NCBI GenBank assembly: GCA_000004695.1
Contig: CM000153.2
Coordinates: 736,001-800,000, forward strand
Reading direction: 5' to 3'
Length of the DNA: 64,000 nt
Source: Dictyostelium discoideum
Lineage: Eukaryota
In this document: positions 7,540 through 32,369 of the stretch, piece by piece
How the letters are laid out: every line of letters starts with the position of its first letter
Position numbering within the stretch: position 1 is the first letter of the stretch
The notes under the pieces: generated by a model
Told to the model about the DNA's origin: nothing
Databases searched by the model: none
What the model saw: the letters and a program-made list of their open reading frames with translations, nothing else
Made by a program: the position numbers and the translations under genes

Positions 7540-8418
7540 ACCACAATGTTGATAAAAATACCATTACTAAATTTCTTTTTGAAAATTCATTTTCAAATTC
7601 ATCAATACTTTTTGGTTCTGTATAATTCTTTGAGTTTTTATTATTTAAAAAATCCATTGTAAATTGTGATAACCCAGGTGGAGGTTCTAATTGTGGTCCT
7701 GATAGTTTAACAATATCAGGTATGGTTTGTGGAATAAACATTGGTTTTGAAAAAATTTGATTTATTTTTGTTGTTGGTATTGGTAATTGTTCTTGTTGCT
7801 CTTGTTGTTGTTCTTGTTGAAGTTTTTGTAATTTTAGATTTGCTAAAATTAAATCATTTTCTAATTTTGTAATTTTTAAATCTTTTTCTTTATTTGACTC
7901 AATTAAATTAATTAACATTGATTGTAATAAAACATGTGGACATGTTATTTCATGAATTGATACAATTGATCTAATTGAAGAGAATTTACAATTCACATTT
8001 TCACCTTTACAATTTATTATGATTGATTCACATTGATTTGTAATATGATTATTAATTTCTGTATTTTTAAATAACTTTCCACAACCTAATGAACATAGTT
8101 GAGTTTTACAATCATTTTTTAAATGATAATTAATGAAATTATTACACCTTTTAATTGGTATAATATCATCACATTCATCACAAACAACTAAAATCTCATT
8201 AAATTTACCAATATTAAAATCTTGTGAAATTTCTATTTTATTTACAATTTTTGTGGTTGTTGTTGTTGTTTTTATTTCACACGTTGGACATATATCTCTA
8301 CCATTTAAACATTCCCTACAAAATATTTTACCACATTGTTTCTCCTGTACAGGGTCATTTAAATAATTAGAACAAATTTGACATTTTAATTCATTACCAA
8401 TTTTATTAATTTTAATAA

Positions 8419-8464
<46 letters not shown>

Positions 8465-8500
8465 ATTACTATTCATATTTTTATTATTATTTTTTAACAA
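7540..8500 (-). CDS. RING/TRAF-zinc-finger - thioredoxin fusion protein, exon 1 (RING-like CQIC..CPTC, TRAF-type Zn finger, coiled coil, start of thioredoxin fold ending ..VMVFLSTLW-C)
   Basis: ATG at 8500; Cys patterns CQICSNYLNDPVQEKQCGKIFCRECLNGRDICPTC and CKTQLCSLGCGKLFKNTEINNHITNQC; exon ends TTG TGG T followed by GTATGT donor (7539). Confidence 0.7.
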
Positions 8501-8508
8501 TTGTTTAT

Positions 8509-8539
<31 letters not shown>

Positions 8540-9495
8540 CCTGTTTAGATCATAACATCGTCATAATGGTTTTTTTTTTTTTATTTTTTTTTTTTTTTAA
8601 AAATATCAAAAAAAAATCAAAAATTAAAAAATTAATAAAACCAAAATAAAAAATTAAAAAAAATTAAAAAAAATTAAAAAAATTAAAAAAAAAGTGTAAA
8701 AAAGAAATATATTTTTAAAAATGATTGACTTTTTTTAAAAAAAAAATATGCAAAATGAAAGTTTTAAATATTTATTTCATTTTTATTCTTTTTCTTAAGT
8801 TTTATTTAATTTTTTTTATTTTGTATAAAATTCTTATTATTATTGATTTGATTTTAAAAAAGATAAAAAGTTTATAATTTTTTTTTTTTATTTTGTATAG
8901 AACTCTTATTATTATTGATTGACAATAATATTATAAAAAATAAAAAAAATAAAATAAAAAAATAAAAAAAAAAAAAAAAAAAAAAGAAATTAAGGAATAT
9001 ATATACCCTATCCTCTTTTAAATAATTGCAATCAAATGAAAAAAAAATTAAAATATTGATTAAAAAAAAATTAAAAAAAATGAGATGATTTTCTTGAAAT
9101 TAATTTTCCCAAAAATATGTAATCAAAACAAAACAATAAAATAAATAAGGAATTAATGATAATAAAAATTATAAAATAATAATGGTATATTATAACAAAA
9201 TAGTAATATTTATAATAATTACAAGGATGAAATTTTAGAAATAATTTTTATATTTTTTTGAAATTTAACCCATTTCACACTTGTATAAAAGACACCCCAT
9301 AAAAAAAAAAAAAGAAAAAAAAAAAAAAAACTAAAAATTATAAGAACTTTTGAACAAATATTTTTGTTTTTAAATATCTTTTTTTTTTTTTTTTTTTTTT
9401 TTTTTTCATGAATAATTACCAAAATGTTTTTCAAAAATATCCCGATTTTTAAACCCAGGGTTTTAATTTTCGGTTTTGAATTAATTAACTGACAC

Positions 9496-10463: not shown

Positions 10464-12248
10464 ATGGATTTTTTAAATAAAAAAATTCAAAAAATATTAT
10501 TTATTTGTATTTTATCATTTTTAATTGTAAATTTAACTAAATCAGAAATTAGTGAAGTTAAAGATGTTAGTAAATTTTTATCAGTAGGTGGAGGAGGTAC
10601 AGGAGGATGTCAACATCCAATTTATTGTAATGGTACATTATTAAAAACAATACAATTGACACAAGTATTTAATGATTCAAAGACATTTGTCGATATGCCA
10701 ATGAGAACATCAATAGAGAATGTTAATGAATTGTTCAACCAACTTTTATTGAACACCAGTAAAAATGGTGGACCAAATAAAGAGGAGTTGGCAGCATTCC
10801 TCAGTGAAAATTTCTACCCAGCAGGGTACGAAGTTGAGCCGGTTACACCAGTAGATTGGGTGCCAAATCCAAGTTTTTTAGATGAAATCACTGATCCGAA
10901 TTTAGTGGATTTCGCAAGAAGCATCCATGGCAAATGGCTGGAATTAACCAGAGTATTCAACACCAGTGGATTGTGTGACGGTTGCTATAGTTCAATACCT
11001 GTGAATAATCCATTCGTAATTGCAGGTTCAAGATTCCGTGAGTTCTACTATTGGGATAGTTATTGGATCATTCAAGGTTTATTAGTATCTGATATGACTA
11101 CAACTGCCAAAGGCATGTTAAGAAATTTCGGTGATATGATAACTGAATTTGGGTTCATTCCAAATGGTGGTAGAATCTATTACTTAAATAGAAGTCAACC
11201 ACCACTTTTCACCCAAATGGTGAATAAATATTTTGAAGCAACCAATGGTAGTGATATTGAATTCCTTCAAGAGATATTACCAATTTTAGACCAAGAATAC
11301 CAATGGTGGATGACCCATCGTACAACAGAGTTGACCAATGGGGAAACTGGCGAAAGTGTGATTTTGAATCTTTATAATGTAAGCAACAATTCACCACGTC
11401 CAGAATCCTATTATGAGGATTTCACCGACGCTCAGTCATTTTCAAGTGTTGAAGAAAAGGATTATTTCTATAGTTCAATTGCCAGTGGTGCAGAGAGTGG
11501 TTGGGATTTCTCAAGTCGTTGGATGAGTCCATCTGACAATACCAATTTAACAACCATCCAAACCGTTGATGTAGTACCTGTGGATTTAAATTCCATACTT
11601 TATTTAAATGAAAAGATTCTTTCATCATTCCATAGAACACTTGGCAACAATTCAATGGCAGTCTATTACCAAGCTCAATCCGAGTCAAGAGTGGATGCAA
11701 TGCAACAAGTGTTTTTCAATGAGGATACTTACCAATGGAATGATTATAACTTGAAAACTAGCACAAACAATGAGGCTTGGTATACTTCAAATATTTTACC
11801 ATTGTTTGCCGACATTCAATCCTCAATCGATATGGATAACCAAGAGATTGATCTCATCTTTAAGAGTTTGGCAAATGTTTTAATAGCCTATCCAGGTGGT
11901 GTCCCTACTTCACTTATCTCTGCCCAAAGTTTACAATGGGATGGTTTAAACGTTTGGCCACCACTTCAATATTGGATCATTGAATCAATTATGACTCCAA
12001 ATACTACATTTTCAAATATGATTGGTAAAAATTTAATTGATCGTTGGATCACTACAAACTTTTGTGGTTGGAATTCAACTTTGGAATCTGAAGGTGGTAT
12101 GATGTTTGAAAAATATAATGCAAACTATATTGGTGTACCTGGTGGTGGTGGTGAATATGTTGTTCAAAATGGTTTTGGTTGGACAAATGGTGTTGATTTA
12201 TATTTATTAAAAAAATATGGTAAATCAATAACTTTAAATAGTTGTTAA
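10464..12248 (+). CDS. treh: trehalase (glycoside hydrolase family 37), secreted
   Basis: single 594-codon ORF; hydrophobic signal peptide; trehalase signature 1 SRFREFYYWDSYWIIQG and signature 2 QWDGLNVWPPLQ both present. Confidence 0.9.
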   Translation: MDFLNKKIQKILFICILSFLIVNLTKSEISEVKDVSKFLSVGGGGTGGCQHPIYCNGTLLKTIQLTQVFNDSKTFVDMPMRTSIENVNELFNQLLLNTSKNGGPNKEELAAFLSENFYPAGYEVEPVTPVDWVPNPSFLDEITDPNLVDFARSIHGKWLELTRVFNTSGLCDGCYSSIPVNNPFVIAGSRFREFYYWDSYWIIQGLLVSDMTTTAKGMLRNFGDMITEFGFIPNGGRIYYLNRSQPPLFTQMVNKYFEATNGSDIEFLQEILPILDQEYQWWMTHRTTELTNGETGESVILNLYNVSNNSPRPESYYEDFTDAQSFSSVEEKDYFYSSIASGAESGWDFSSRWMSPSDNTNLTTIQTVDVVPVDLNSILYLNEKILSSFHRTLGNNSMAVYYQAQSESRVDAMQQVFFNEDTYQWNDYNLKTSTNNEAWYTSNILPLFADIQSSIDMDNQEIDLIFKSLANVLIAYPGGVPTSLISAQSLQWDGLNVWPPLQYWIIESIMTPNTTFSNMIGKNLIDRWITTNFCGWNSTLESEGGMMFEKYNANYIGVPGGGGEYVVQNGFGWTNGVDLYLLKKYGKSITLNSC

Positions 12249-13040
12249 AAAAATAATAAAAAAATAAAAAAATATTTAAATAAATAATAATAATATATAA
12301 AATTAATTTTTTTTTTTTTTTTAAAAAAAAATTTATTTATAATAAAAATAATAATAATAAATAATAATAATAGTAAAAATAAAACAAATTACTGAAAAAA
12401 AAAAAAAAGAATAAAAAAAATACAATAAAAAGAATAAAAAAATAAAAACTTAAGGTCCGAATATTTTATTTTAGGCATAAAAAAAATAAAAAAGTAATAA
12501 AAAATTAAAATAAGAAATTTATACAATTTAAAAAAATAAAATAATTTAATTAAATCAATTTGGGTTTTTTTTTTTAATTGTCCTTTAAAATAAAAAAAAT
12601 AATTACAAAAAATATGGATGATAAATAATTAAATTCTAAAAATAAAATTTTTGATTAAAAAATAAAAAATAAGAAAAAACAGAATGATTACATTCATTTT
12701 TTTTTTTTTTTATATTTAATATCATTTTGTGTATTTTTGAATATTATATTTATCTTTTTTTATTGATATTAAAAATAAATAAAATTAAATTATTGTTAAA
12801 AACAAAAAGAAAAAAAGGAAAAAATAAAATCATATTAAATTTTTTTTTTGTTTTATTTTTTTTTTTTTTTTTTGACATATCTAAAAAATAATATTATAAA
12901 TGATCAAAAAAAAAATAAGGGTCCAAAATTTAACTGAAAATAAAAATAAAAAAAATAAAAAAAAATAAAAAAAAATAAAAAATAAAAAAAAAAAAAAAAA
13001 AAAGATATTTTTTTTTGATTTTAATTTTTTTTTTTTTTTG

Positions 13041-17546: not shown

Positions 17547-17868
17547 ATGAATTTTAATTTAAATTTAGAATATCTAAATAGTGATCCAAATTCTATCATT
17601 GAATATTTAACACAAATATGGAAAGAGGATGAATCATTAGGATATTATAAAGAATTTCTTGACGTTTGTTTGAAAATTGTTGCAGGTACCGATCAGCCAG
17701 AAACATTTTTCAAAGAATTAACTGATAAAAAACTTTTAAATTTCGGAGCATGTGAAACTAAATGGAGTTTCGGTGACTCTGCTTATAAATGTAGAACTTG
17801 TCAACTTGACCCAACAAGTGCATTATGTATTGCATGTTTTAAAGAAGGTGATCATGAAGGTCATGATT
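17547..17868 (+). CDS. UBR-box E3 ubiquitin ligase (N-recognin, UBR1/2/3-like) exon 1; first half of UBR box CRTCQLDPTSALCIACFKEGDHEGHD-
   Basis: ATG 17547; exon ends CAT GAT T + GTAAGT donor at 17869. Confidence 0.8.
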
Positions 17869-17967
17869 GTAAGTTAAATTTATTTATTATTTATTTTTTT
17901 TTTCCCCATATAAAATATTTTATACTAATTTTTTTTAAATTTTTTTTTTTTTTTTTTAAAAAAAAAG

Positions 17968-19174
17968 ATGCATTACAAAGTGTTGGAGGTGGATTTTGTG
18001 ATTGTGGTGATCCAGCAGCATTTAGACCAAATGGATTTTGTATTAAACATAAGGAACAAAAGATAGATATTAACAAGTATCCAGAAAGATTTATATTGGC
18101 ATTAAGTTTTGTAATACAGTTTATGTTGAAAAGGATATATGTGTTTTATGATAAGAATAATAGGGTATTGTTTGAAATGTTAATTGAATGGTTATTGAAA
18201 TTAGCACAACGTGGTGACATTATAAAGGTAGTGGTAATTAAATACATTAGTAACACAGACATTGGTAACACGAATTTATTACCACCATCACCATTTGCAG
18301 TACCATTGATTCAATTGTTCTATTCACCAGATTTACACGAATCAGTATCACGTTCAATGAAAGAGACAATCGCCAACTTTTGTGTGTTTTTACGTGGTTC
18401 AGTGGAATTTATCGAGTCGTTCATATCATTGATGTTACCAATTTACAAGAAATGTATCATCGAATGTAAGAAACATATCCTTTTATCATCATTTAGTATA
18501 TTTTCATCGACTGCAGTGGGTCCATTACTATTGTCAACCAACGCCGCTGAGATCGTGATGGATACTATCACAGAGTATTTTAGTAAACATTTTTATATTA
18601 GAGATGAATTCATTTCACCATCATCATCAGATTCAAAGTCAAAGAAAAAGAGATCATTACGTTTCAAAGATCCTTACCTTTATCCACAATTTAAACAATT
18701 GACAAAATTACATGAAACACCTTTAGCCACCCAAGTATTACGTACCGATATCTCTTTTATACTTGGTAATCAACCCGTTGCAAAGAGTGTCGTTGAGTCT
18801 AAACATCTTCTTTCCCTTTGGATCAATATGATTGCAATCGCTCAAGGTATGAATCCAAATGTTAAATATAAGATCACCTCCCCTGATGATTGGTCACCTG
18901 CTTTCAATGTTGATTTCTCCTTTAGTAATACCATTTTCTCCATAGTAAATTCAATATCACAAGATAAATTATCATTGGATCAAATTTTATTATTCTCAAC
19001 TCAATATCTTGGTAAATGGATTTTAGGTTGGTTAGAATATAGAAATAATTATCAAGTTGAAAAATTAAAAAGATTAGAAGAAAAAGAAAAAGAAGAAAAA
19101 GAAAAAGAAGAAAAAGAAAAAGAAATTGATTCAAAAGAATTAAAAACAACAACTACTACTACTACTAATACTAC

Positions 19175-19233
<59 letters not shown>

Positions 19234-21404
19234 CAATACCACATTATTTAACAAATATTAAACAATTATTATCATTACATTTAAAACGTGAAGGATTTTC
19301 ATTCCATTTACCATTACATAGATTAGTATCAGCTATTTTATTTAAATGTTTAAATAATGTTGAATTAGCAAAACAGTATAAAGATGATGGTGGTTTGAAA
19401 TCATTGTTTACTCAAATCATTGGTTCAGATTCATTGATTAGCATTTCAGATTATGCAAGAGGTACAACTTATCATCCATTCAAGATCATTGCCTCTTTAG
19501 GTGAAATTAAATCTGGTATGTGGAGATCACATGGTAGAGAAGAGGATATGACATTACAAACTGTCGTTTATCAAAGTTTACATTATCAAAAGTATTTCGA
19601 TTTAGATATTTTCTTAATTCAAATCGGTGCTGCAATTATGGGTTCAAATCAATTCATTCAACATGCTATCAATATCTATAATCTTGAAGATTGGTTTGAA
19701 ATTGAACCTTTTAATGGTTCATTAAATAAATCAACTGAGGGCACTCCTACTACCACCTCATCACAACCACCTTCAACTCCTTCAAAACAAACTTCATTAC
19801 GTAATAGTGCTGGTACTGTACCAACCACTCCTTCTCAATCTTCTTCAACTATAGTTCCAACTTTAGATACAATTGGTGAAACTACCACTACTACTACCAC
19901 CACAGCAACAACTACCACCACCACTGATGGTATAATTACAGAACCAAAAAAAGAAACTAAAGAAGAGAAAAAAATTAGAAAAGAAAAACAAAAGATTCAA
20001 GAAGATTTACAAAAGAGAAAAGGTTTAGCAGAGGATTTCTTACAAAATGTTATTATGTTTTCAACAAATAAATTAATGTGTGGTATGACAGAGGATCAAG
20101 TAATTAGAAAGGAGTTAATTCATAGATTATGTTTAGGTGATAATACTCATAGTCAATTGACAAGAGCAATCAAGAAGAAATTGGTTAATCATGAAAACTT
20201 TGAAACTATATTAAAGGAAATTTCAGTCTACCATCAACCACAAAAGACCGAACAAGGTAAATATCAATTACGTGAGCAATGTTGGTCAGAGTTTGATCCA
20301 TACTTTTCACATTACAACACTCAAGATTTACAAACTGCCGAAGAGAGATACTCTGAATTTCAATCCAAAACCAAGTCAAATATCGCTCGTGGTACCTATA
20401 TAAATTATCAAACTTCACCTTGTTTCGAAGAGATTGATCAATTACTTTGCTCAAAGACTTTACATCAAATCGTTTTCACTATCTTACAAAACCAATTGGT
20501 GGATGGTGCAAAATCAACTGATACCATATTCACCCATTGTTTACACGCTTTGGAGTTATGTATCAATCAAACTTTGGCCAATCCAGAGTTGAAGGCTGAA
20601 GCTATCAGCTCTGCAATCGTGGTTCAAACACCTTCAAAACAAACACCATTGGTTAAACCATCTTCTGCAACTCCACCAACTTCAATTCCAAAGAATTATT
20701 CAGAGATTGAATTACCATCTAAAAAGAATATCTTTTTGAATGCTTTTGTCGATGTTCCAGTTTCAGAGCAAAAGAGATTCTCTTTGATCATTTTATTGGT
20801 AAAACTTACAACCTCTCAACAAATCAATGCCGATCATAAACAACAAATTCAAAATATCATTAACATCTTGATGGAGAATAATGTCAATTGTAAACAAACC
20901 ATTGAAAATTATTGGGCTGCAATTAAAGCAAAGAAACAACCACAATCTGCACGTAAAGAGGATCCAGAGGAAGAAAAGAAACGTTTAGCTCGTGCTAGAC
21001 AAGCAGCGATTTTAGCTCAAATGAAAACTCAACAATCTGCTTTCAAATTTGAAGATGGTGAAGATGATGAAGATTACGAAGATGATTATGAAGATGCTAG
21101 CACAAAAGGTTCATCAGCTAGCGCAGCACATAAAGATAAAAAACAAAAACAAAAAGAATCAAATGCATTGGTTGTTGATGGTCATGAATCCATTACAACT
21201 TGTGCACTTTGTCGTGAACCAGGTTCATTGGATCGTCCAATGGGTAGAGTTGCTTTCATTCAACCATCTTCAATCATTATGTTATCAAAATTAACACCTG
21301 AAGAAAGAAAGAAACGTATGACTGAAGCAATAATGAAAGAACTTTATCAAGGTGTAAAAGGTAGAGAAACTATAATTTCAAATAATGATAATATAATTAA
21401 TTTA

Positions 21405-21441
<37 letters not shown>

Positions 21442-24191
21442 TTAACAACAATAATAATAATAATAATAATAATAACAATAATAATGTAAATAGTATTAAT
21501 AACAATATTGGAGGTATTCCAATTGTAAATAATGGTAATGATGGTGGTGTTAATGGTTTAACAGATTATATTCATCCAGATATGGATGAAATGGATGGTG
21601 ATGATATGGGTGATGTTGATATGGGTGGTATGGCAGTTGAGGATGATGGAGAGGATGATAGTGAGGATGAAGTAAATAAAGCTATCTCTTTCCTTAATCG
21701 TGTTTCACATTCAAATGATTTCATGGGTGGATTTGGTGATTTCGAAGATGGTATGGGTATGGATATTGAAGGTGGTGATGATGATGATGATGACGATGAT
21801 GACGCCGAAGATGATGATATGATGATGGGTGAATTGGGTGGAGTTCGTCACCATCACCACCATCATCATGGTGAGGAAGATGAAGATGGTGAAGAAGATG
21901 AAGATGGTGAAGAAGATGAAGGATCAGATTCAGATTCAGATTTGGATTTAGAAGATTTAAATGGTTCCGACGATTCAGATGATGAATTTGATTTTGGTGA
22001 TGAAGAAGGATCTGATGAATATATTTTAGAAGACGGTATGCCACGTTTACGTAGATTGGCCGGTACAAGTACTCAACAAGGAACTACTAGTACTAATAAC
22101 ACCACTGCAACATCAACCAATGATATAGCTCAAACTTTATTGAGAGCTCTAGAAAGAATACCAACAGGTACAGGAAATGTTAATAGTCGTAATATCATTA
22201 GCCAATTAACAACTCAATTATCACAAGGTAACGCAAGAGTACACATTCAAGCAAGAGATAACAATGGTAGAGCATTTTCAGAGATTAATTTTGATCAACT
22301 TCTTAGCCAATTAAATAATCAAACAAATGTTCCAATCTCTGTTCATGATAATGGTCGTAATAGAGCATCTGTAACTCTTCAATTAAATTCAACTCCTCCA
22401 ACTACAACTACCACCACAGCAACTTCACCAGCAACAACAACAACTACAACAACTACTACAGCAACAGCACCAAAACCAAATGATAATGGTGGTAGTGATG
22501 ATGAGGATTCAGATGATATGGGTGATATTGATGGGGATGATGAAGATGACTTATTTGGAGATGACGATGATTTCTTCTTTGATGATGATGAAGCAAACGA
22601 TGATGTTTTCCTTAAATTTGATGCAGCAACTGAACCAGTCACAGGTAAACCATGGTCAAATAAATTTAGTAAACAAGAAATCTTTAGAAACATTGAGGAA
22701 TCAGTAAACCTTAATTTATCATTCTGTGGTCATCAAATTCATGAAAGTTGTTTCTCTGAATACTCTTGGTCATTGTTAAAGAATAATGAAGGTGTTGAAT
22801 ATGTCGATCCAGAAAAGAATGAATTCCTTTGTGTATTATGCCGTAGAATTGGTAATGCGATCGTACCAGTTGTACCAGATTCAGGATTTTGTTCACACGA
22901 ACATACCGCATCACCACAACCAATCATCACACCAGCAATGGCAAGAAATAATAAGAATAAAGATGTTCAATGTTATTCCGAATTTTATCAAGCATTGGGT
23001 AATAGATTAATGGGTAAAGATGAAGAGCATAAAAAAGCATTGGATGCTCCAAACCCACAACCATTAAGAAATATTAGACAAGCAATCGATCAATTCTCAT
23101 CCAGAGTCTATGGTGTTAGATATGATTTGAATTTCTATAAATCAAAATCTGATGCAACCGTCATACCATTCCTTTGTTCATCTTTAGCTTCAACCATTGC
23201 AAGCACTGAACTTTCAATTCGTGTTCATGATCCAGAACAACAACAACAACAGCAACAACAACAACAACAATCAAGTCTTTATCCATTATTCTCAATGAGT
23301 GATTCAAATCGTGTTGACCTTCGTTCACTCTTTAGATATATGATTGTTCATTCACATATGTATCCATCATTGGCATATCAAGGTCAATTACTTTGGAAAT
23401 CAATATCTGGTTCACAACATACTCAATTATTACCAACTGAAGAGGAGTTGGAAGAAATTGAAAGAAAAGAAAATGAAGAAAAAGAAAAACTTTCAAAAGC
23501 AAAACTTGATCAAAAAGAAAAAGAGAAAGAAAGAGAGAAAGAAAAAGAAAAGAATGAGAGAGAAAGAACTCAAAAACTTTATCCAGAGGTTTATGATCAA
23601 GGTGTTTATGGTGAGGCATTCCCACCATTACTTTCATTAGATCTTTTCAATACTTTTATTCAAGTGTTTTTAAGATACTCTGATACTAATCTTTCATTGA
23701 ATGTTGAGAAATTCTATATGGTAGCAAGAATGTTTTATGATGCATCAATTACTCAATCGATTTTACAACATTTCAAAACCACCGATACTACTTTCACCAC
23801 CGATGATACCTATGTATCAACCATTAACAATTTAATCACAACAACCTATGAAACAGTAACACCAATCTTATCAATTCCACCAGTTCATTTGACTGCAATT
23901 AAAACTAATTCTCTAATCTTTTTAAGAAGATTATCAATCTTTTTGTTTAGTTGTTTAAAGATTGATCCAATCTCTTCAAATCAAACTACATTGGATGGTG
24001 AAATCGATTATTTAGTTGATTATTTAAATTTACCATCATTTGATCAACATTGTTTATCAGTTTTAAATGCTATCACTTCTCATACTGAAAATATTGTACC
24101 ATTGGTTTCAACTTGGACTGAACAAATATTATTTATTTCTGCTATTACTTCAAGTGTTGAAGATTCAAAAAATAATGTTGAAGATTTATCA

Positions 24192-24235
<44 letters not shown>

Positions 24236-24773
24236 AACTACTACAACAACTACTACTACAACTTCACCAAATGATAATCAAACTGTAGTTTCTTCACCAA
24301 TAAAACAATCAATTTTACCAAATCCATCAATTCCAAATCCATTCCTATTAATTCAATTACCAGAACAATACAATATTGTATCACAATATTATTCATCAAT
24401 TCCATGCCTTCAATGTAAAACCATTTCAAATAATCAAGCACTTTGTTTGGTTTGTGGTACATTATGTTGTTTGGGTGGTTGTTGTAAGAGATTCTTTGAT
24501 CAAAAGAGTGAAGCTGTTTTACATGCTGAAAAATGTAATGCTGGAACTGGTATTTTCTTACTTATCAAAACTAGTTCAACTTTATTAATTCATTTACCAA
24601 GAAAAACTTTATGGATTTCTCCTTATCTTGATGATCATGGTGAGGAAGATCCAAACTTAAGAAGAGGTAGACCATTACTTTTAAATGCTAATCGTTATAG
24701 TCAATTAAATTCATTACTCGTTAAACATCAAATCGATCAAGACTCAAAGATTGCAGAAATGTCTCAAAGATAA
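17968..24773 (+). CDS. UBR-box E3 ligase exon 2: rest of UBR box (Y-ALQSVGGGFCDCGD), long helical regions, RING-H2-like CGHQIHESC..CVLC, UBR C-terminal Cys/His-rich autoinhibitory-type domain; many low-complexity inserts (polyQ, polyN, polyT, His7, acidic)
   Basis: acceptor AAAAAAAAG at 17967; 99-nt intron is stop-free and in frame so the ORF track reads through it; splicing restores canonical GHDY..GGGFCDCGD spacing; C-terminal ..CLQCK..CLVCGTLCCLGGCC..H..C..RGRPLLL..RY motif typical of UBR1-family C-termini. Confidence 0.8.
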
Positions 24774-24907: not shown

Positions 24908-26889
24908 TTAACTATTAAAAAATTTAATTATTTCATTATTAATAAAAGTTATTGATTTATTTCTTTTATTTTTTAATTGTAAATTTGAAAAAGTTGTTTT
25001 GTTGTGTAAATATCCTAATGAATGTGTTGGTTGACTTTTAATAAAATCTTTAATATATTTACAATTACCTGTACTAATTACATGATTGATATCATTAATT
25101 GGATTGAAAAGACTAATTAATTTTATTTCAGATTGAAATCCTACCAAAGTGTTATTTGTTATTAAACCATTTCTATATAGATTATAAATAAATTTACGTT
25201 GTTTAAAATTCCTATAAATATCCAAACCAATTGAAATTTCAATTTTTGGTTTTGATTCTTCTAAAGAATTATTATATTCAATTAATTTTTGAATGGAATA
25301 ATAAAATAAATAACCAGATTCCCATTCATTTAATTCAGAGATATTATTTAATGAACCACTAAATCTATAACCAAGTTTTTCATACATAAACTTTGCAACT
25401 TGAATAGTTTCACTATGATTAATTGATGTTTGTTTATTAATTCCTCCAATATTATTATCGTGAATATATTCTATAAAATTTAAATTATTTGATTTTATAA
25501 TTAATTTACTAATTGATTCATGATCCCATATAAAAAGATCTCTATTATTTTCATAAAAATATTTAAAAATATTTTCATTACCAACTAATAAATTACCATT
25601 TAAATATTCTGGTTTTGTTGAAATATTTGAAAAATAATAAGATTTTATTATTAATGCAATTTTTTTGAAATTTTCATTATCGTCACCACTATCACTATCA
25701 CCACCGTCTCCATCACCATTTGTCTTTAGTTTATCTTGTGTATTATTGTTTATTATATGTTTAAAAATTGTTTCTTTAATATTTGTATTATACTTAAATA
25801 AAACATCTAAAAAATTTAATTGCTTTGATATTGGAGTGGTTTTTGGGTTGAAAAATAGATCTTGTGGTAATTTTATTAAATGAGATATAGCTAATCCTCT
25901 ACTATGATCAAAATGATAACCCTCTTTAAATAAATCCTTTATTCTATCAATTATTTGGGAATCTGCATATTTCATTGATACATCAATAATCATTGAACTA
26001 GTTACATCATTATTTATCCATTGACTGTTTATTTCTTCAAATAAATAATTATAATCACCATATTGACAAATAAAATTTAAAATTAATTTTACCCAATCTT
26101 CATTTGTTAATAATACCATATCTTTAACTTTTTTTAAAAATTCAAATAAAAATATTCTTTTTATTTCTCTTTCAAATATAAAATTATTATTATTATTTAA
26201 ATTATTATTAATAAGATTATTTATTTTATTTAAAGTTTCAGAATAGTAAAGTGAATCTGATTTTTGGATTTGTGATAAAAGGTATAATCCATTTTGTAAA
26301 TGATTTAAAAAGGTATTAAATGTTATTAATTGATTATTATGGTGATTATAGGTTATAAACTGAGAACAATTGACAGTTATTGAACTAAATTTATTTGTTA
26401 CTGAATTTTGTTTAAATCTATCTAATAAAGATTCAACCCAACCCATATTATATAACCTTTTAAATAGATTAAACTCTAAAAGTATTAATTTATAATTATT
26501 ATTATCATTAAGTTTTTTTGATTTTGGTGATAATTTTAATTCATCTAATAAATAACTTAATACTTCATTTCTATTTGGTAATTCTAATACATTTGAAATT
26601 AATAGTAACTCTTGTTGTAAATTTTTTTTATTTAAATAATTTTTTTTATTTTTAACAATTTCATTATTAATATATTTTATAATATCCAAATTACCGCATT
26701 TGAATGCTAAATCTAATAATATTGAACTATCTTCAACTATTTCTTGATTAATAATAATATCTTTATGAATTATTTTAACAAATTCTAAATTATTTGTACT
26801 TATAGAGAATGAAAATAATTTATTTTCACCATTCTTTAAAAAAAGTGCTTTTATTTGTTTTTTATTCTTTTGATAAAATTTATTTAAAA

Positions 26890-26962
<73 letters not shown>

Positions 26963-27256
26963 TTTATTTATTAAATGTTGAATAAAAAGTTTTAATTCAT
27001 TTTCTTCAATTTCATTCTCTTCAAATTCTATACCAATTTTAACTTTATCATATAATAGTTCAAAAAAATTATTTTTTATCATCCAACAAAATGTTGCTTC
27101 ATCAAATCTTAATCTTTGTGTATAACTCTTATTTTTAATATTACTATTGGTAATTTGTCGATTTATACCTCTAACGATTTTAAATATTTTTTTTAATAAA
27201 AATATATTATTAAAAACTGATTTATATAATGTATAGATTTTATCACTGCATTCCAT
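24908..27256 (-). CDS. lineage-specific protein family member A (782 aa) with degenerate ankyrin-like repeats; tandem paralogue of next gene
   Basis: single ORF from ATG 27256; shares N-terminal motif ..YKSVFNNIFLLKKIFKIVRGINRQ.TNS, internal (AAT)n poly-Asn, ANK-like A.K.GNL.IIKY motifs and C-terminal ..NEN/MIFKY..N..LF.W...IS..IIKS.NL..IE.IH.N.IG..region with 27555-30074. Confidence 0.75.
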
Positions 27257-27554: not shown

Positions 27555-29178
27555 TTATAATCTTGAGGTTTTAATATTAAAATAATTAATTATAAAGTTA
27601 TTATTTACAGGGAAAGATTTACAAAAATTATCATCAAATATTATTTTTGAATTATTTTCTTTAATGTATTGATTTATATATGATAAATTACCAAATTTTT
27701 TTAAAGATTCTAATGAGTTTAAAGAGTTTAAAAATTCATTTACTTGATTATCACCAATTGAAATGTTATTAAAATTTAATTTCCCATCAATGATTAATTT
27801 TGATAAAAATTTCAATTTTTTATAATCATTTCCTACTTTATTACTTGTGATAATTAATAAATTACTTGAAGAATCTGATTGATTATCTTTAATGATTTTA
27901 TTAATTGCATAATAAAATAAATAATTTGAATTCCAATCATTTAGATTTGAAATATCAATAAGTTGACTATCGAATTTATAACCCAATTTTTCATACATTA
28001 ATTCAGCAACTTGTCTAGTTTTACAATGATTAATTGAAGAATTTAAATCCAATGAACCAATTTCATTATTATGAATAAATTCAATTAATTCTAAATTACT
28101 TGATTTAATTATTGATTCACTAATATTCTTATCATTCCAATCAAATAATTCATAATGATTTTTAAAATAATATTTAAAAATCATTTCATTTCCAGTAAAT
28201 AAATTTGCAGTTAGTTTCGTAGTAGTACTACTACTGGTGGTGGTAGTGCTAGTGGTAGAATTGTAATTTTTAATAATTTCAATAATTTTATTTGCATGGT
28301 CGACAATTGTTAAATCAATAAAATTATCAAATATATTCTTTAAAATGATTTCTTTACATTGGAAATTATATTTGTAAATGGTTTCAATAAATATTAATTG
28401 TTGATTGATATTAACTAATTTTGGATTATAATAATAATTGTTTGTTGATGTGTCATTGTGATGTCTAACATATGATTCATCTAAATAACGTTGAAAATAT
28501 TGTTCATAAAATGTTGGTATAACTTCAATGAAATTTGGGTCACCATGTTGTACAGCTATTTGGATAACCAATGATGAAAACATTTTCTCTGGTGATTTTA
28601 ATTTTACATTTATATCTTCAATCTTTTTAATATTTAATTCATCTTGAATTAAATTATATTCTTGACTTTCTCTTGAATAATTTAATATAATAAGTGTCCA
28701 TTCATCTTGTGAAAATATTAATTCTTTAATTTCTTTTAAAAAATCAATTAAAATAATTCTTTTTAATTGAATTTCAATTTTATTTCCACTAAAATTAATT
28801 TCATCATCATCATCACTATTAATTTCAACAATTGATTTAACTTTATTTGAAATTACTGATTTAATATTTGAAAATAAATTTGTTATTTTAAATTCTGCCT
28901 GTTGTTCATATTTCTCATTTTGCTGGTCTTCTTCTTGTTGTTGGTCTTGTTGTTGTAATAATTTATTTATATTTTTTAAAGGCTGACAATATTTAGATTT
29001 AATAGTTGATAAAAATAAAATTGTATTTTGGAAAAAATTTAAAACATTATTAAATGGAATAAAATCTTTTCCATTATTATAATTTATTAAATATTTTGAA
29101 TAAAGTCTAATTCTTGTGCAAAGTTTACTAATTATTAAATCATGTGAACTTTTATTAATAATAAAATTATTATTATTA

Positions 29179-29213
<35 letters not shown>

Positions 29214-30074
29214 GGTTGGTATTGAAATTAAACCAATTTCAAATAACTTTTTAAATAATGATGATTCTAAATTAAAAAAATCAGTGAATAATGATTTTGG
29301 ATCGTATGGATAATTATCATCTCTTTCCGATTTTATTGGTTTGAAATTAATTTCATTTAATAAATATTTAATTATTTTGTTTTTATTATTAATAGTAGTG
29401 GTTGATGCAATTATATTATTTATTGTTTTCTCTCTGTCAACAAATTCAATACCTAATGTATTATGAACAAATTTAATTATTTCTAAATTTCCATTCTTTA
29501 TTGCACTATCCATTAGAAAGTTAAATGGGTTATTCGTTTTTTCAAGTTTAAATTCTTTATTTATAAACTCTTGTTGATATATTATTTCAATAAAATCCAA
29601 ATTTTGTGAATCTACTGCAAATTTTAAAATTCCATCTATCGAAGCCAATTCTTTAATTAATTTTTTATTTGTTTCATAAAATGTATTTAAAATTTCTTTT
29701 GTAATAATTAATGATGGTGTTGATGTTGGTGTTGGTGTTGGTGTTGGTGATGTTGATGATGTTGATGATGTTGATGTTAATGTTAAAAATAATGAAATGT
29801 TTGGTAACGTGAAATCATCATTTTCTTCTTTAAATTGTTTACCAATTTTGATTTTATCTTTTAATAATTGAAAATGAGCATTTTTAACCATCCAAATAAA
29901 TGTTGCTTCATTGTATCTACATCTTTGTGTGAATGATTTATTTTCTATCATACTATTTGTAAATTGTCTGTTTATACCTCTAACAAATTTATAAATCTTT
30001 TTACATAAATAAATATCATTAAATACTAATTTATATAATTTATAAATGTCAAATCTATGAGAACTAACAACCAT
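27555..30074 (-). CDS. lineage-specific protein family member B (839 aa), paralogue of 24908-27256
   Basis: single ORF from ATG 30074; colinear similarity to upstream paralogue at N-terminus, middle and C-terminus; PT-rich linker; poly-Asn. Confidence 0.75.
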
Positions 30075-30652: not shown

Positions 30653-31474
30653 ATGTCAAATGTTTTATTTTTTATTTCTTTATATTTATTATCGAATAGT
30701 TTTGTAAATTCTCAAGGATCTCCATCTAGTTGTACTTTTAATGGTATAAATTATGGTTCATTAAGTAATGGTAGTTATTCAGCATTAAGTGCAGCCTCAA
30801 GTGTAAATCCTCAAGGTAAATATAGATACTATTGGAATATATGCGGTGATGCAACTCAATGTAAATCATATGGGAGTTGGTCAGCATGTCAACTTCAAGT
30901 TGGTTCAACAGGTAATCCAAATCCTGTAGGTTTAACAAGTCTTGGTTCATTTGGTACATCAAACTCAGGTGATACACAATTAAAATACACCACATCCTTA
31001 AAATGCGCAAATGGAAATAATAGAACTTTTATTATGACATTTACCTGTTCTAATAATCAAGTAATTTCATCCTCATTAGTTTCAGAGAATAATTGTATTT
31101 ATACTGTAGAAATGAGTGGAAACATTTTTTGTCCCACTCCAACTCCAACTCCAACTCCAACTCCAACTCCTACTCCTAATCCAACTTCAAATGTAACCTG
31201 TAAATCATCCAATGGAATTTCAATAACTAGTTCAGATATCATTACATGTATTGGATATGGTCAATCAATATGTACAACATCATCAGGCTATTCATGTGAA
31301 ACCAATCAAACTAATGGAGTTCTTAAATGTATTTCACCTGATAATTCAATTTCATGTATTGGTAATCAATTCTATTGTTATACTCAATCTTATACATGCT
31401 CAGTTGATTTTAAATCTTATGATGGATTACAAGTGAATGGTAAAATCATTAATTCAACTTATTTTTCATCATAA
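30653..31474 (+). CDS. secreted Cys-rich protein: signal peptide, MRH-like (mannose-6-phosphate receptor homology-like) beta-sandwich domain, (PT)n linker, second Cys-rich module
   Basis: ATG 30653, hydrophobic N-terminus ending SFVNSQG; Cys spacing YRYYWNICGD..C..C...C.NGNNRTFIMTFTC...CIYTVEMSGNIFCP resembles MRH/glucosidase-II-beta lectin domain; PTPTPTPTPTPTPTPNPT linker. Confidence 0.65.
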   Translation: MSNVLFFISLYLLSNSFVNSQGSPSSCTFNGINYGSLSNGSYSALSAASSVNPQGKYRYYWNICGDATQCKSYGSWSACQLQVGSTGNPNPVGLTSLGSFGTSNSGDTQLKYTTSLKCANGNNRTFIMTFTCSNNQVISSSLVSENNCIYTVEMSGNIFCPTPTPTPTPTPTPTPNPTSNVTCKSSNGISITSSDIITCIGYGQSICTTSSGYSCETNQTNGVLKCISPDNSISCIGNQFYCYTQSYTCSVDFKSYDGLQVNGKIINSTYFSS

Positions 31475-31689
31475 TTTACTTCAAAATGCTCCTTTTTACG
31501 ATGCCAAGTAATTCATTAAAAACTTAAAAAGTAATAAAAAATAGCTTATATTTATTTAAATATTAATTCTAATTTTAAAAGGTTTTTTAAACATTTGATT
31601 AAAATATTTAAAAAAATTTTTTTTTTTTTTTTTTTTTTTTTGGTTTTATTTTCAAGAAGAAAATTTTTTTTTTTTTTTTTTTTTCTTGA

Positions 31690-32012
31690 AAGGTCCTCAA
31701 GGTAAATATAGATACTATTGGAATATATGCGGTGATGTAATTTAATGTAAATCCATTGTTGTATCAGCATGTCAACTTTACGTTGGTTCAACATATTCTC
31801 CAACTCCTATAGGTTTAACAAGTCGTGGTTCTTTTGGTACATCAAATTCAACTACACAATTAAAATACACCACAAATTCAAGATGTTCTAATGGGAATTT
31901 TAGATCTTCTGTTATGTCATTTACTTGTTACAATAGTAAAGAAATTACATCCACACTAGTTGTAGACAATCAATGTATTTATAATGTAGAAATGAGTGGC
32001 AAAGCTTTTTGT
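31690..32012 (+). pseudogene. truncated, disrupted duplicate of the MRH-like domain of gene 30653-31474
   Basis: ~85% nt identity to 30820-31140 but lacks signal-peptide region, has indel plus in-frame TAA (..ICGDVI*) and ends ..GKAFCVKI*; antisense ORF 31552-31803 mirrors antisense ORF 30738-31010. Confidence 0.55.
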
Positions 32013-32047
32013 GTTAAAATCTAAAAAAAAAAACCAGATTTAAATTT

Positions 32048-32091
<44 letters not shown>

Positions 32092-32099
32092 TTGTATTT

Positions 32100-32369
32100 T
32101 TTGGGTGATACACAAATTCAAAATGCTCCAATGGAAATTTTAGAACCTTTGTTATGCACTTTAATTGCTCTGATAGTCAAGAAATTTCGGCTTCATTAGT
32201 TTCAGATAATGCTTGTATTTATACAGTAGAAATGAGTGGAAAAGTTTTTTGTCCCACAACTCCAACCACATCAAATAGTATTTCAATAATCAGTTCAAAA
32301 ACAACCATTTGGATATATATATTTCAATTCCTAATATATACCTATATCTTTTCAATTTATAATTGAAAT
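32100..32369 (+). pseudogene. second partial duplicate (C-terminal half of MRH-like domain + Ser/Thr-rich stalk + hydrophobic GPI-signal-like tail), frameshifted at 5' end
   Basis: ..CSNGNFRTFVMHFNCSDSQEISASLVSDNACIYTVEMSGKVFCPTTPTT..IWIYIFQFLIYTYIFSIYN*; ~16-nt deletion relative to parent breaks the frame upstream. Confidence 0.5.

Follow-up and report, generated by a model that had tools for sequence, protein, structure and literature searches.

In a 64,000-nucleotide (nt) stretch of Dictyostelium discoideum DNA (assembly GCA_000004695.1, contig CM000153.2, positions 736,001 to 800,000; hereafter the window), an intact gene for an MRH-like lectin, which we call gene A, is followed by two incomplete copies of the same domain, termed psiB and psiD. 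The locus is very probably a tandem array of lineage-specific Atg27/mannose-6-phosphate-receptor-like paralogs subject to birth-and-death evolution, with psiB and psiD as the non-functional relics of two paralog types, B and D. Both are unprocessed pseudogenes that carry disabling lesions and lie in syntenic positions, where no poly(A) or retroposition signature was found. The original prediction for this locus, made from the letters of the window, had described the fragments as pseudogenes arising by birth-and-death and as duplicates of the adjacent gene; the former description holds, and the latter is replaced here by descent from older, distinct paralogs. The window represents chromosome 4 of AX4-type D. 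discoideum. Its open reading frame (ORF) at 10464-12245 was identical to the AX4 trehalase TreA/DDB_G0283473, and positions 423-22251 (21.8 kb) were 99.78% identical to chromosome CM142510.1 of the D. discoideum assembly GCA_054883475.1. The AX4-type array has the order A-psiB-psiD, with a gene of 839 amino acids (aa) upstream of gene A and an ABC transporter gene downstream of the array.

In the course of events that we propose, the array would derive from the Dictyostelium Atg27/MPR-like gene represented in AX4 by DDB_G0292610, through lineage-specific paralogs. Gene A alone would have remained intact in the AX4-type array, encoding a secreted MRH lectin with an O-glycosylatable Pro-Thr (PT) linker and a Cys-rich module. 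A B-type gene would have become psiB through two terminal deletions and a CAA-to-TAA change, and a D-type gene would have become psiD through loss of its 5' half, a 16-nt frameshift, and near-complete loss of its PT tract.

To place the window in a comparative context, syntenic loci from six other genomes were fetched by exact-protein look-ups of homologs; the C-terminus of the ABC transporter, used as a query, gave only a D. citrinum fragment, which led to locus L007. The arrays were composed as follows, with protein lengths (aa) in parentheses:
L001, ACTFIR (labelled D. discoideum; ~90% identical to the window at the nt level): A(269)-B(194)-relic-C(192)-D(317)
L002, ACTFIW: A(267)-B(195)-relic-B'(202)-C(192)-D(271)
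L003, D. cf. discoideum: A(272)-frameshifted copy-A(264)-B, with a small fragment in addition
L004, D. firmibasis: two A-type genes, the 311-aa one with a Cys module and a hydrophobic tail
L005, D. dimigraforme: a single A-type gene and an N-terminal fragment
L007, D. citrinum: a single A-type gene

Across the seven genomes, the number of intact genes per array ranged from 1 to 5. The upstream gene of 8xx aa and the downstream ABC transporter gene bracketed the array in four of the six other loci; D. firmibasis and D. citrinum had different neighbours on at least one side. All intact family members were single uninterrupted ORFs, and no intron is therefore expected in the family. B- and C-type genes consist of a signal peptide, the MRH domain, a short stalk (SSNGISKTSSNMIAT), and the tail IWIFIIQFLIFTYIFL followed directly by the stop codon. 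The D type shares this layout but has a long PT tract and ends in TSNSISIISSKTTIWIYIFQFLIYTYMF. A neighbor-joining (NJ) tree showed that B and C cluster within the ACTFIR/ACTFIW lineage and that the two D. firmibasis genes pair together; since B and C cluster in that way, the C type may never have existed in the AX4-type lineage.

Relics comparable to psiB and psiD were found in L001, L002, L003, and L005. Those of L001 (10887-11089) and L002 (9421-9546) lie between the B gene and the next gene, and each corresponds to an A-type gene whose whole MRH domain is deleted, leaving the signal-peptide region fused to the start of the Cys module, with in-frame stops. In L003, a D-like copy with a frameshift (8283-9174) and a small fragment of the MRH domain (12146-12256) were present, and the N-terminal fragment of L005 is located at 11364-11528. 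The assemblies behind L001 and L002 (GCA_054859385.1 and GCA_054859355.1), both labelled Dictyostelium discoideum, showed ~90-93% identity to the window over 14 kb of coding and non-coding DNA. This divergence is far above within-species expectation, and the two assemblies probably represent a cryptic sister lineage. At the D. citrinum locus (L007, 10001-11910), the A-type gene adjoins an apparent ABC-transporter remnant with a 282-aa product, of which only ~280 nt match the window, at 86%; on the other side lie an unmatched 277-aa gene and then FNIP and Pyr_redox genes, unlike the window. Because these flanking genes differ from those of the window, a rearrangement of the D. citrinum locus is suggested.

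The relic features of the AX4-type array, all on the forward strand, are listed below:
31693-32024, +, psiB, relic of a B-type paralog, covering codons ~54-161 and lacking start codon, signal peptide, stalk, and tail
31743-31745, +, in-frame TAA of psiB, CAA (Gln) in all intact relatives
31637-31692, +, 5' deletion junction of psiB with T-rich filler, from the pairwise alignment of the window with L001
32006-32047, +, 3' deletion junction of psiB, fusing the MRH coding end to the homolog of the B-gene 3' flank (L001 10660-10700)
32104-32366, +, psiD, relic of a D-type paralog with its 5' half deleted, from alignments to L001 13742-14695 and L002 13761-14576
32253-32363, +, psiD stalk PTTPTTSNSISIISSKTT and hydrophobic tail IWIYIFQFLIYTYIFSIYN, orthologous to the C-termini of intact D-type genes, which end in TSNSISIISSKTTIWIYIFQFLIYTYMF and the stop codon

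A direct-repeat search followed by alignment matched the psiB homology segment 31693-32012 to gene A positions 30808-31132, in ungapped blocks of 95% (60 nt), 87% (87 nt), and 79% (160 nt) identity, and tblastn within the window matched gene A to 31695-32012 with E=1e-42. Identity of psiB was 91.4% to the B gene of L001 (10001-10585), 89.5% to the 195-aa B gene of L002, and 80.9% to gene A over 324 columns. The NJ tree placed psiB in the B/C clade, outside the ACTFIR/ACTFIW B+C group, as species relationships predict. These comparisons identify psiB as the ortholog of the intact 194-195 aa B-type gene present in two ~10%-diverged assemblies. At its 5' end, a T-rich segment of ~56 nt stands in place of ~290 nt of L001 (9873-10160), so that the promoter-proximal region is missing together with the ATG, the signal peptide, and codons 1-53. 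At its 3' end, ~183 nt comprising the stalk, tail, stop codon, and the start of the 3' untranslated region are gone between two TTTTGT microhomologies, so that GCTTTTTGT is joined to a downstream AAAA(T/C)CTAAAAAAAAACCAG(A/G)TTTAAA segment. The nonsense change is a single CAA-to-TAA substitution located between two conserved Cys codons. The original prediction had correctly noted that this copy repeats the domain and contains an in-frame TAA; its estimate of ~85% nt identity was slightly high, and the indel that it read as decay is a paralog-type difference.

Two candidate interpretations of psiB were rejected. The 3-nt differences between psiB and gene A are not decay: one is common to all B and C genes, and the second corresponds to a CGA insertion found only in L001-B and L002-B195. 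Exchange by gene conversion between psiB and gene A was discarded too, psiB being nearer its ortholog in nearly every 40-nt window.

In psiD, the distal half of the MRH domain is kept at 32112-32252, and the frame ends at the stop codon 32364-32366. Similarity to gene A covered residues 114-160 and continued onward, with a tblastn E value of 7e-20 for 32112-32348; for both copies, the resemblance to gene A greatly exceeds what chance would give. BLAST comparison with the D genes gave 88% identity for 32118-32266, and from 32257 psiD was collinear at 90% with the last ~100 nt of the D gene, the shared 3' flank, and the ABC transporter. The tail frame was 90-94% identical to its orthologs, and psiD grouped with the D genes with 71% bootstrap support in the NJ tree. 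We therefore regard psiD, on these alignments, as orthologous to the 3' portion of an intact D-type gene of 271-317 aa. The loss extends from the signal-peptide region approximately to codon ~105, and a 15-nt segment, TTTTATTTGTATTTT, is possibly the remaining trace of the lost 5' part. After GGTGATACACAA (32104-32115), 18 nt are replaced by 2 nt (net -16) at 32115/32116, shifting the frame. Beyond this frameshift psiD remains open for 84 codons, which cover the distal domain half, PTTPTTSNSISIISSKTT, and IWIYIFQFLIYTYIFSIYN. The PT tract, ~230-340 nt long in the D genes of L002 and L001, is reduced to PTTPTT. The earlier description of this copy as a frameshifted distal half with an intact Ser/Thr stalk and a GPI-signal-like hydrophobic tail was borne out, the frameshift being the net 16-nt deletion and the frame running to 32364-32366.

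Branch-polarised substitution counts, which were more informative than pairwise dN/dS (the ratio of nonsynonymous to synonymous substitution rates), were small for both relics: psiB had 10 against 9 for its sister in 317 nt, and psiD had 12 against 2 in 144 nt. Because of these counts, psiB seems to have been inactivated recently, and psiD appears to have been drifting longer than psiB, near the neutral rate. The claim that the fragments are recent pseudogenes therefore fits psiB, and psiD looks older.

Gene A, which was correctly predicted to encode a signal peptide, an MRH-like Cys pattern, a (PT)n linker, and a second Cys module in an intact ORF, comprises the following features, all on the forward strand:
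30653-31474, +, gene A, intact single-exon coding sequence of 273 aa, stop included, from the ORF list
30653-30715, +, predicted signal peptide, residues 1-21 (MSNVLFFISLYLLSNSFVNSQ), a hydrophobic N-terminus
30728-31132, +, MRH/P-type lectin domain, residues ~26-160, with six conserved Cys, Q80, R124, E145, and Y150
31133-31180, +, (PT)n linker, residues 161-176, read directly from the sequence
31184-31471, +, C-terminal 8-Cys module, residues 178-273, dictyostelid-specific

Orthologs of 264-296 aa with the same start and end were present in L001, L002, L003, L005, and L007, and differed in the length of the (PT)n linker; dN/dS between gene A and its orthologs was 0.40-0.54, and that between paralogs of the family 0.4-0.9. 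The signal-peptide segment was conserved in all intact paralogs, and its residues 2-18 formed a helix in the AlphaFold2 (AF2) model. The gene A product ends in NSTYFSS without a membrane anchor and is predicted to be secreted. For its 8-Cys module, no Pfam family was matched, and the AF2 model was of low confidence in this part. Within the 5975-aa protein P0031, 48 stretches matched part of the Cys-rich module, which, or the core Cys motif of which, may thus also exist as a highly iterated repeat.

Profile and structural comparisons place the domain of gene A in the MRH/P-type lectin family, in agreement with the predicted MRH similarity. All three copies exceeded the gathering cut-off (23 bits) of Pfam PF13015 (PRKCSH_1, the glucosidase II beta-like MRH family), with 31.4 bits for gene A, 33.7 for psiB, and 24.8 for psiD. 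A phmmer search of PDB sequences matched gene A to S. pombe GIIbeta MRH structures. A family profile built from 12 members matched CI-MPR with E=1.3e-25, best on domains 3 and 9, and GIIbeta with 1e-4. The AF2 model of gene A was of moderate confidence only, with a predicted local distance difference test score of 65-88 over residues 27-160; with this model, the 39 best Foldseek matches in PDB were all MRH-type domains of CI-MPR, OS-9, XTP3-B, GIIbeta, or Elapor1, and the best single-domain TM-score (target-normalised) was 0.65-0.67, at a root-mean-square deviation of 3.3-3.8. Eight Cys residues (C27, C64, C70, C79, C118, C132, C148, and C160) were invariant in the 12 family members and aligned with Cys of CI-MPR domains in the profile alignment.

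Residues Q80, R124, E145, and Y150 of gene A aligned to Gln, Arg, Glu, and Tyr of CI-MPR domain 3, with equal E-to-Y spacing. We take the sugar-binding residues of that domain to be Q348, R391, E416, and Y421, with which the chain numbering in the alignment agrees after subtraction of the 44-residue signal peptide. The Q, R, and Y positions were conserved family-wide, with the exception of L002-A, which has F at the binding-site Tyr. Codon 145 (31085-31087) encodes E in AX4, D. citrinum, D. firmibasis, and D. dimigraforme; the corresponding residue was Q in L001, L002, and the 272-aa A gene of L003, P in the 264-aa A gene of L003, and D in all B and D types, both relics included. An intact MRH domain of this kind would be expected to bind mannose-type or phosphomannosyl glycans, and within the array this binding may be in the process of changing or degenerating.

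The original prediction that the ancestral array included anchored forms was supported by the intact B, C, and D genes, which begin with a signal peptide and end in a stalk and a hydrophobic tail (...SSNMIATIWIFIIQFLIFTYIFL or ...SSKTTIWIYIFQFLIYTYMF before the stop codon). Their terminal hydrophobic stretch comprises 15-17 residues with nothing after it; it is compatible with a glycosylphosphatidylinositol (GPI) signal, yet homologous to a transmembrane (TM) helix. When the B gene of L001 (10001-10585) and the psiD tail (32307-32363) were compared with P0009, the tail (..TIWIFIIQFLIFTYIFL, then the stop codon) aligned with the TM helix of DDB_G0292610/P0009 (..GGGWIFIIILLSVTVVYIV..), with WIFII in common. 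P0009 matched positions 5-260 of the 261 of the Pfam ATG27 profile (PF09451) with 108 bits, and the B type only positions 5-209, with 32 bits; gene A gave no match to the profile at E<=10. Because the full-length ATG27 match, with TM helix and cytoplasmic tail, is missing, we class the array genes as truncated or remodelled derivatives and not as Atg27 orthologs. Given the alignment with the paralog TM helix and the end of the ATG27 match at 209, the B/C/D tail is probably the TM segment of an Atg27/MPR-like receptor ancestor, truncated just before the cytoplasmic domain. A comparable tail also follows the Cys module in D. firmibasis and other dictyostelid relatives. For the B- and D-type proteins, a GPI or tail anchor at the cell surface is probable; these modes of secretion or anchoring are deduced for the array proteins from their sequences. 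Literature searches found nothing on DDB_G0292610 or on the new assemblies, and the only Dictyostelium 'MRH domain' paper found treats another gene, DDB_G0283243.

Several points weigh against psiB and psiD being non-functional relics. The 84-codon frame of psiD is still open, the lesions were read from one AX4-type assembly at this locus, and gene A and the fragments, including a 70-aa psiD ORF, were unmatched in the protein collection. Pairwise dN/dS between the fragments and intact orthologs was 0.15-0.32 and not elevated over the 0.40-0.54 between intact orthologs, a value that comes from few sites, with most of the divergence possibly predating inactivation, and that is uninformative for relaxed constraint. 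We infer from their sequence that psiB and psiD are not expressed as protein. One alternative makes the fragments exons, with the 3' end of psiD supplying gene A with a different last exon by splicing from, for example, the donor GTAAAA at 31440, to give an anchored isoform like the 311-aa D. firmibasis protein. In-frame GT...AG pairs from the gene A ATG to the natural psiD stop do exist, the D. firmibasis ortholog combines Cys module and tail, and the psiD tail frame is open and close to its orthologs. However, enumeration of all pairs gave 446 in-frame GT...AG read-throughs from gene A into the fragments, as chance predicts, and coherent versions need an intron of ~750-800 nt with coding-like sequence. 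Typical Dictyostelium introns measure ~100-200 nt, with an A+T content of about 90%. The candidate acceptors are embedded in MRH coding sequence and have no A/T-rich tract, and no AG acceptor was found just upstream of psiD. The tail is conserved no more than the flanking non-coding DNA (~90%), and every intact family member is single-exon. Nor can a complete MRH domain be rebuilt, because the TAA of psiB, lying between two conserved Cys, is not removable by splicing without destroying the domain, and psiD has no first half. That the fragments are exons is accordingly very unlikely, and it is most unlikely that the psiD stalk and tail in particular provide gene A with such a last exon, yielding a secreted and a membrane-anchored MRH lectin from one locus; if this were true, the D. 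firmibasis architecture would have been recreated by exonising a pseudogene remnant.

The use of a single AX4-type assembly for the exact locus also bears on the possibility that a repetitive four-gene array was collapsed or mis-joined in the reference, which would make the fragments artefacts of assembly. The array is indeed repetitive, with units 75-90% identical and PT microsatellites, and the sister assemblies have 4-5 intact genes. Collapse of paralogs would, however, yield chimeric in-frame genes, not T-rich-flanked truncations, a 16-nt deletion, and a point nonsense change. Both flanks are collinear with the sister loci, the fragments differ from their orthologs by ~9-12%, like the surrounding DNA, and the neighbouring 21.8 kb recurs at 99.78% identity in an independent chromosome-level assembly; an artefact is extremely unlikely. 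We consider it equally improbable that the relics are retained as functional non-coding DNA, either as gene-conversion donors for gene A or as a regulatory or long non-coding RNA element. Such a role could suit a fast-evolving family of surface or secreted lectins with the paralog dN/dS given above, and psiB does carry one A-type state (TGC) within an otherwise conserved 45-nt stretch. Against it, the sliding window showed no conversion tract, with psiB nearer its ortholog than gene A nearly everywhere, psiD has accumulated substitutions at about the neutral rate, and the relics elsewhere in sister lineages suggest plain decay.

The surroundings of the array contained further features. The window is very A+T-rich (G+C 15-38%), with poly-Asn coding tracts in its ORFs. 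The 782-aa (24908-27256, reverse strand) and 839-aa (27555-30074, reverse strand) genes upstream of the array are tandem paralogs of each other, sharing the N-terminal motif ..YKL/SVFNxIxLxKKIxKxVRGINRQxTNS.. and ~72% nt identity in parts. Both have long poly-Asn or Ser/Thr tracts, and a Pfam hit is recorded for neither in the gene tables of the related loci. The 2408-codon ORF at 17547-24773 contained a single candidate in-frame intron of 99 nt (17869-17967, GTAAGT...AG, 92% A+T) without an in-frame stop, removal of which gives exactly the 2375-aa product called in GCA_054883475.1.

With psiB and psiD read as relics of B- and D-type genes, the array represents a small, fast-turnover family of MRH lectins, secreted or at the surface, that descends from an Atg27/MPR-like receptor and was identified in the D. 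discoideum species complex. Two putatively anchored members, retained in close relatives, would have been lost from the laboratory reference lineage. Users of AX4 are affected by the under-representation of this MRH-lectin family in its gene set, which is relevant to glycan recognition, cell-surface lectins, and social or bacterial recognition in wild isolates. The case is one of textbook birth-and-death and ordinary gene-family turnover, for which new biology is not required, and its main value lies in annotation and comparative genomics.

Comparison with known systems supports this placement. As in other birth-and-death tandem families, copy number varies from 1 to 5 in close lineages, duplications are lineage-specific, and intact genes are interspersed with truncated, frameshifted, and nonsense relics. 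The array differs in that inactivation here involved mainly small deletions removing 5' ends, rather than point mutations, and is otherwise not unusual. The nearest D. discoideum paralog of gene A is DDB_G0292610, a type-I membrane protein of 255 aa whose lumenal domain is of the MRH kind. It bears the automatic name 'Autophagy-related protein 27' in UniProt (Q54CZ8) and matched Pfam ATG27 over its full length as well as the Man-6-P receptor family. Its signal peptide and MRH domain are 52-58% identical to those of gene A, with the same Cys pattern and Q/R/E/Y residues, and its TM helix WIFIIILL... resembles the WIFIIQFL... of the B/D-type tail. However, its cytoplasmic tail with a YQQV motif is absent from the array genes: gene A has the PT linker and Cys-rich module in place of the TM helix and no anchor, and the B and D types end directly after the hydrophobic segment. 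The array also lies at another locus and is variable in copy number between lineages.

Among MRH proteins more broadly, gene A resembles CI-MPR domains 3 and 9, glucosidase II beta, and OS-9 (PF13015, PF00878, PF02157) in profile and predicted fold. It is predicted to differ from them as a small single-domain secreted protein, rather than a sorting receptor or an endoplasmic reticulum quality-control factor, and the position of the sugar-binding Glu of CI-MPR domain 3 is variable in the array (Q or P in the A orthologs of L001-L003, D in the B and D types). The dictyostelid proteins P0032, P0034, and P0002 have the same order of signal peptide, MRH domain, linker, and Cys module as gene A, with the module 36-66% identical (HMMER), and possess a hydrophobic C-terminal tail of the kind that the original prediction had attributed to the ancestral forms. 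In contrast, no tail follows the terminal NSTYFSS of gene A or of its orthologs in D. citrinum, D. dimigraforme, and the discoideum complex.

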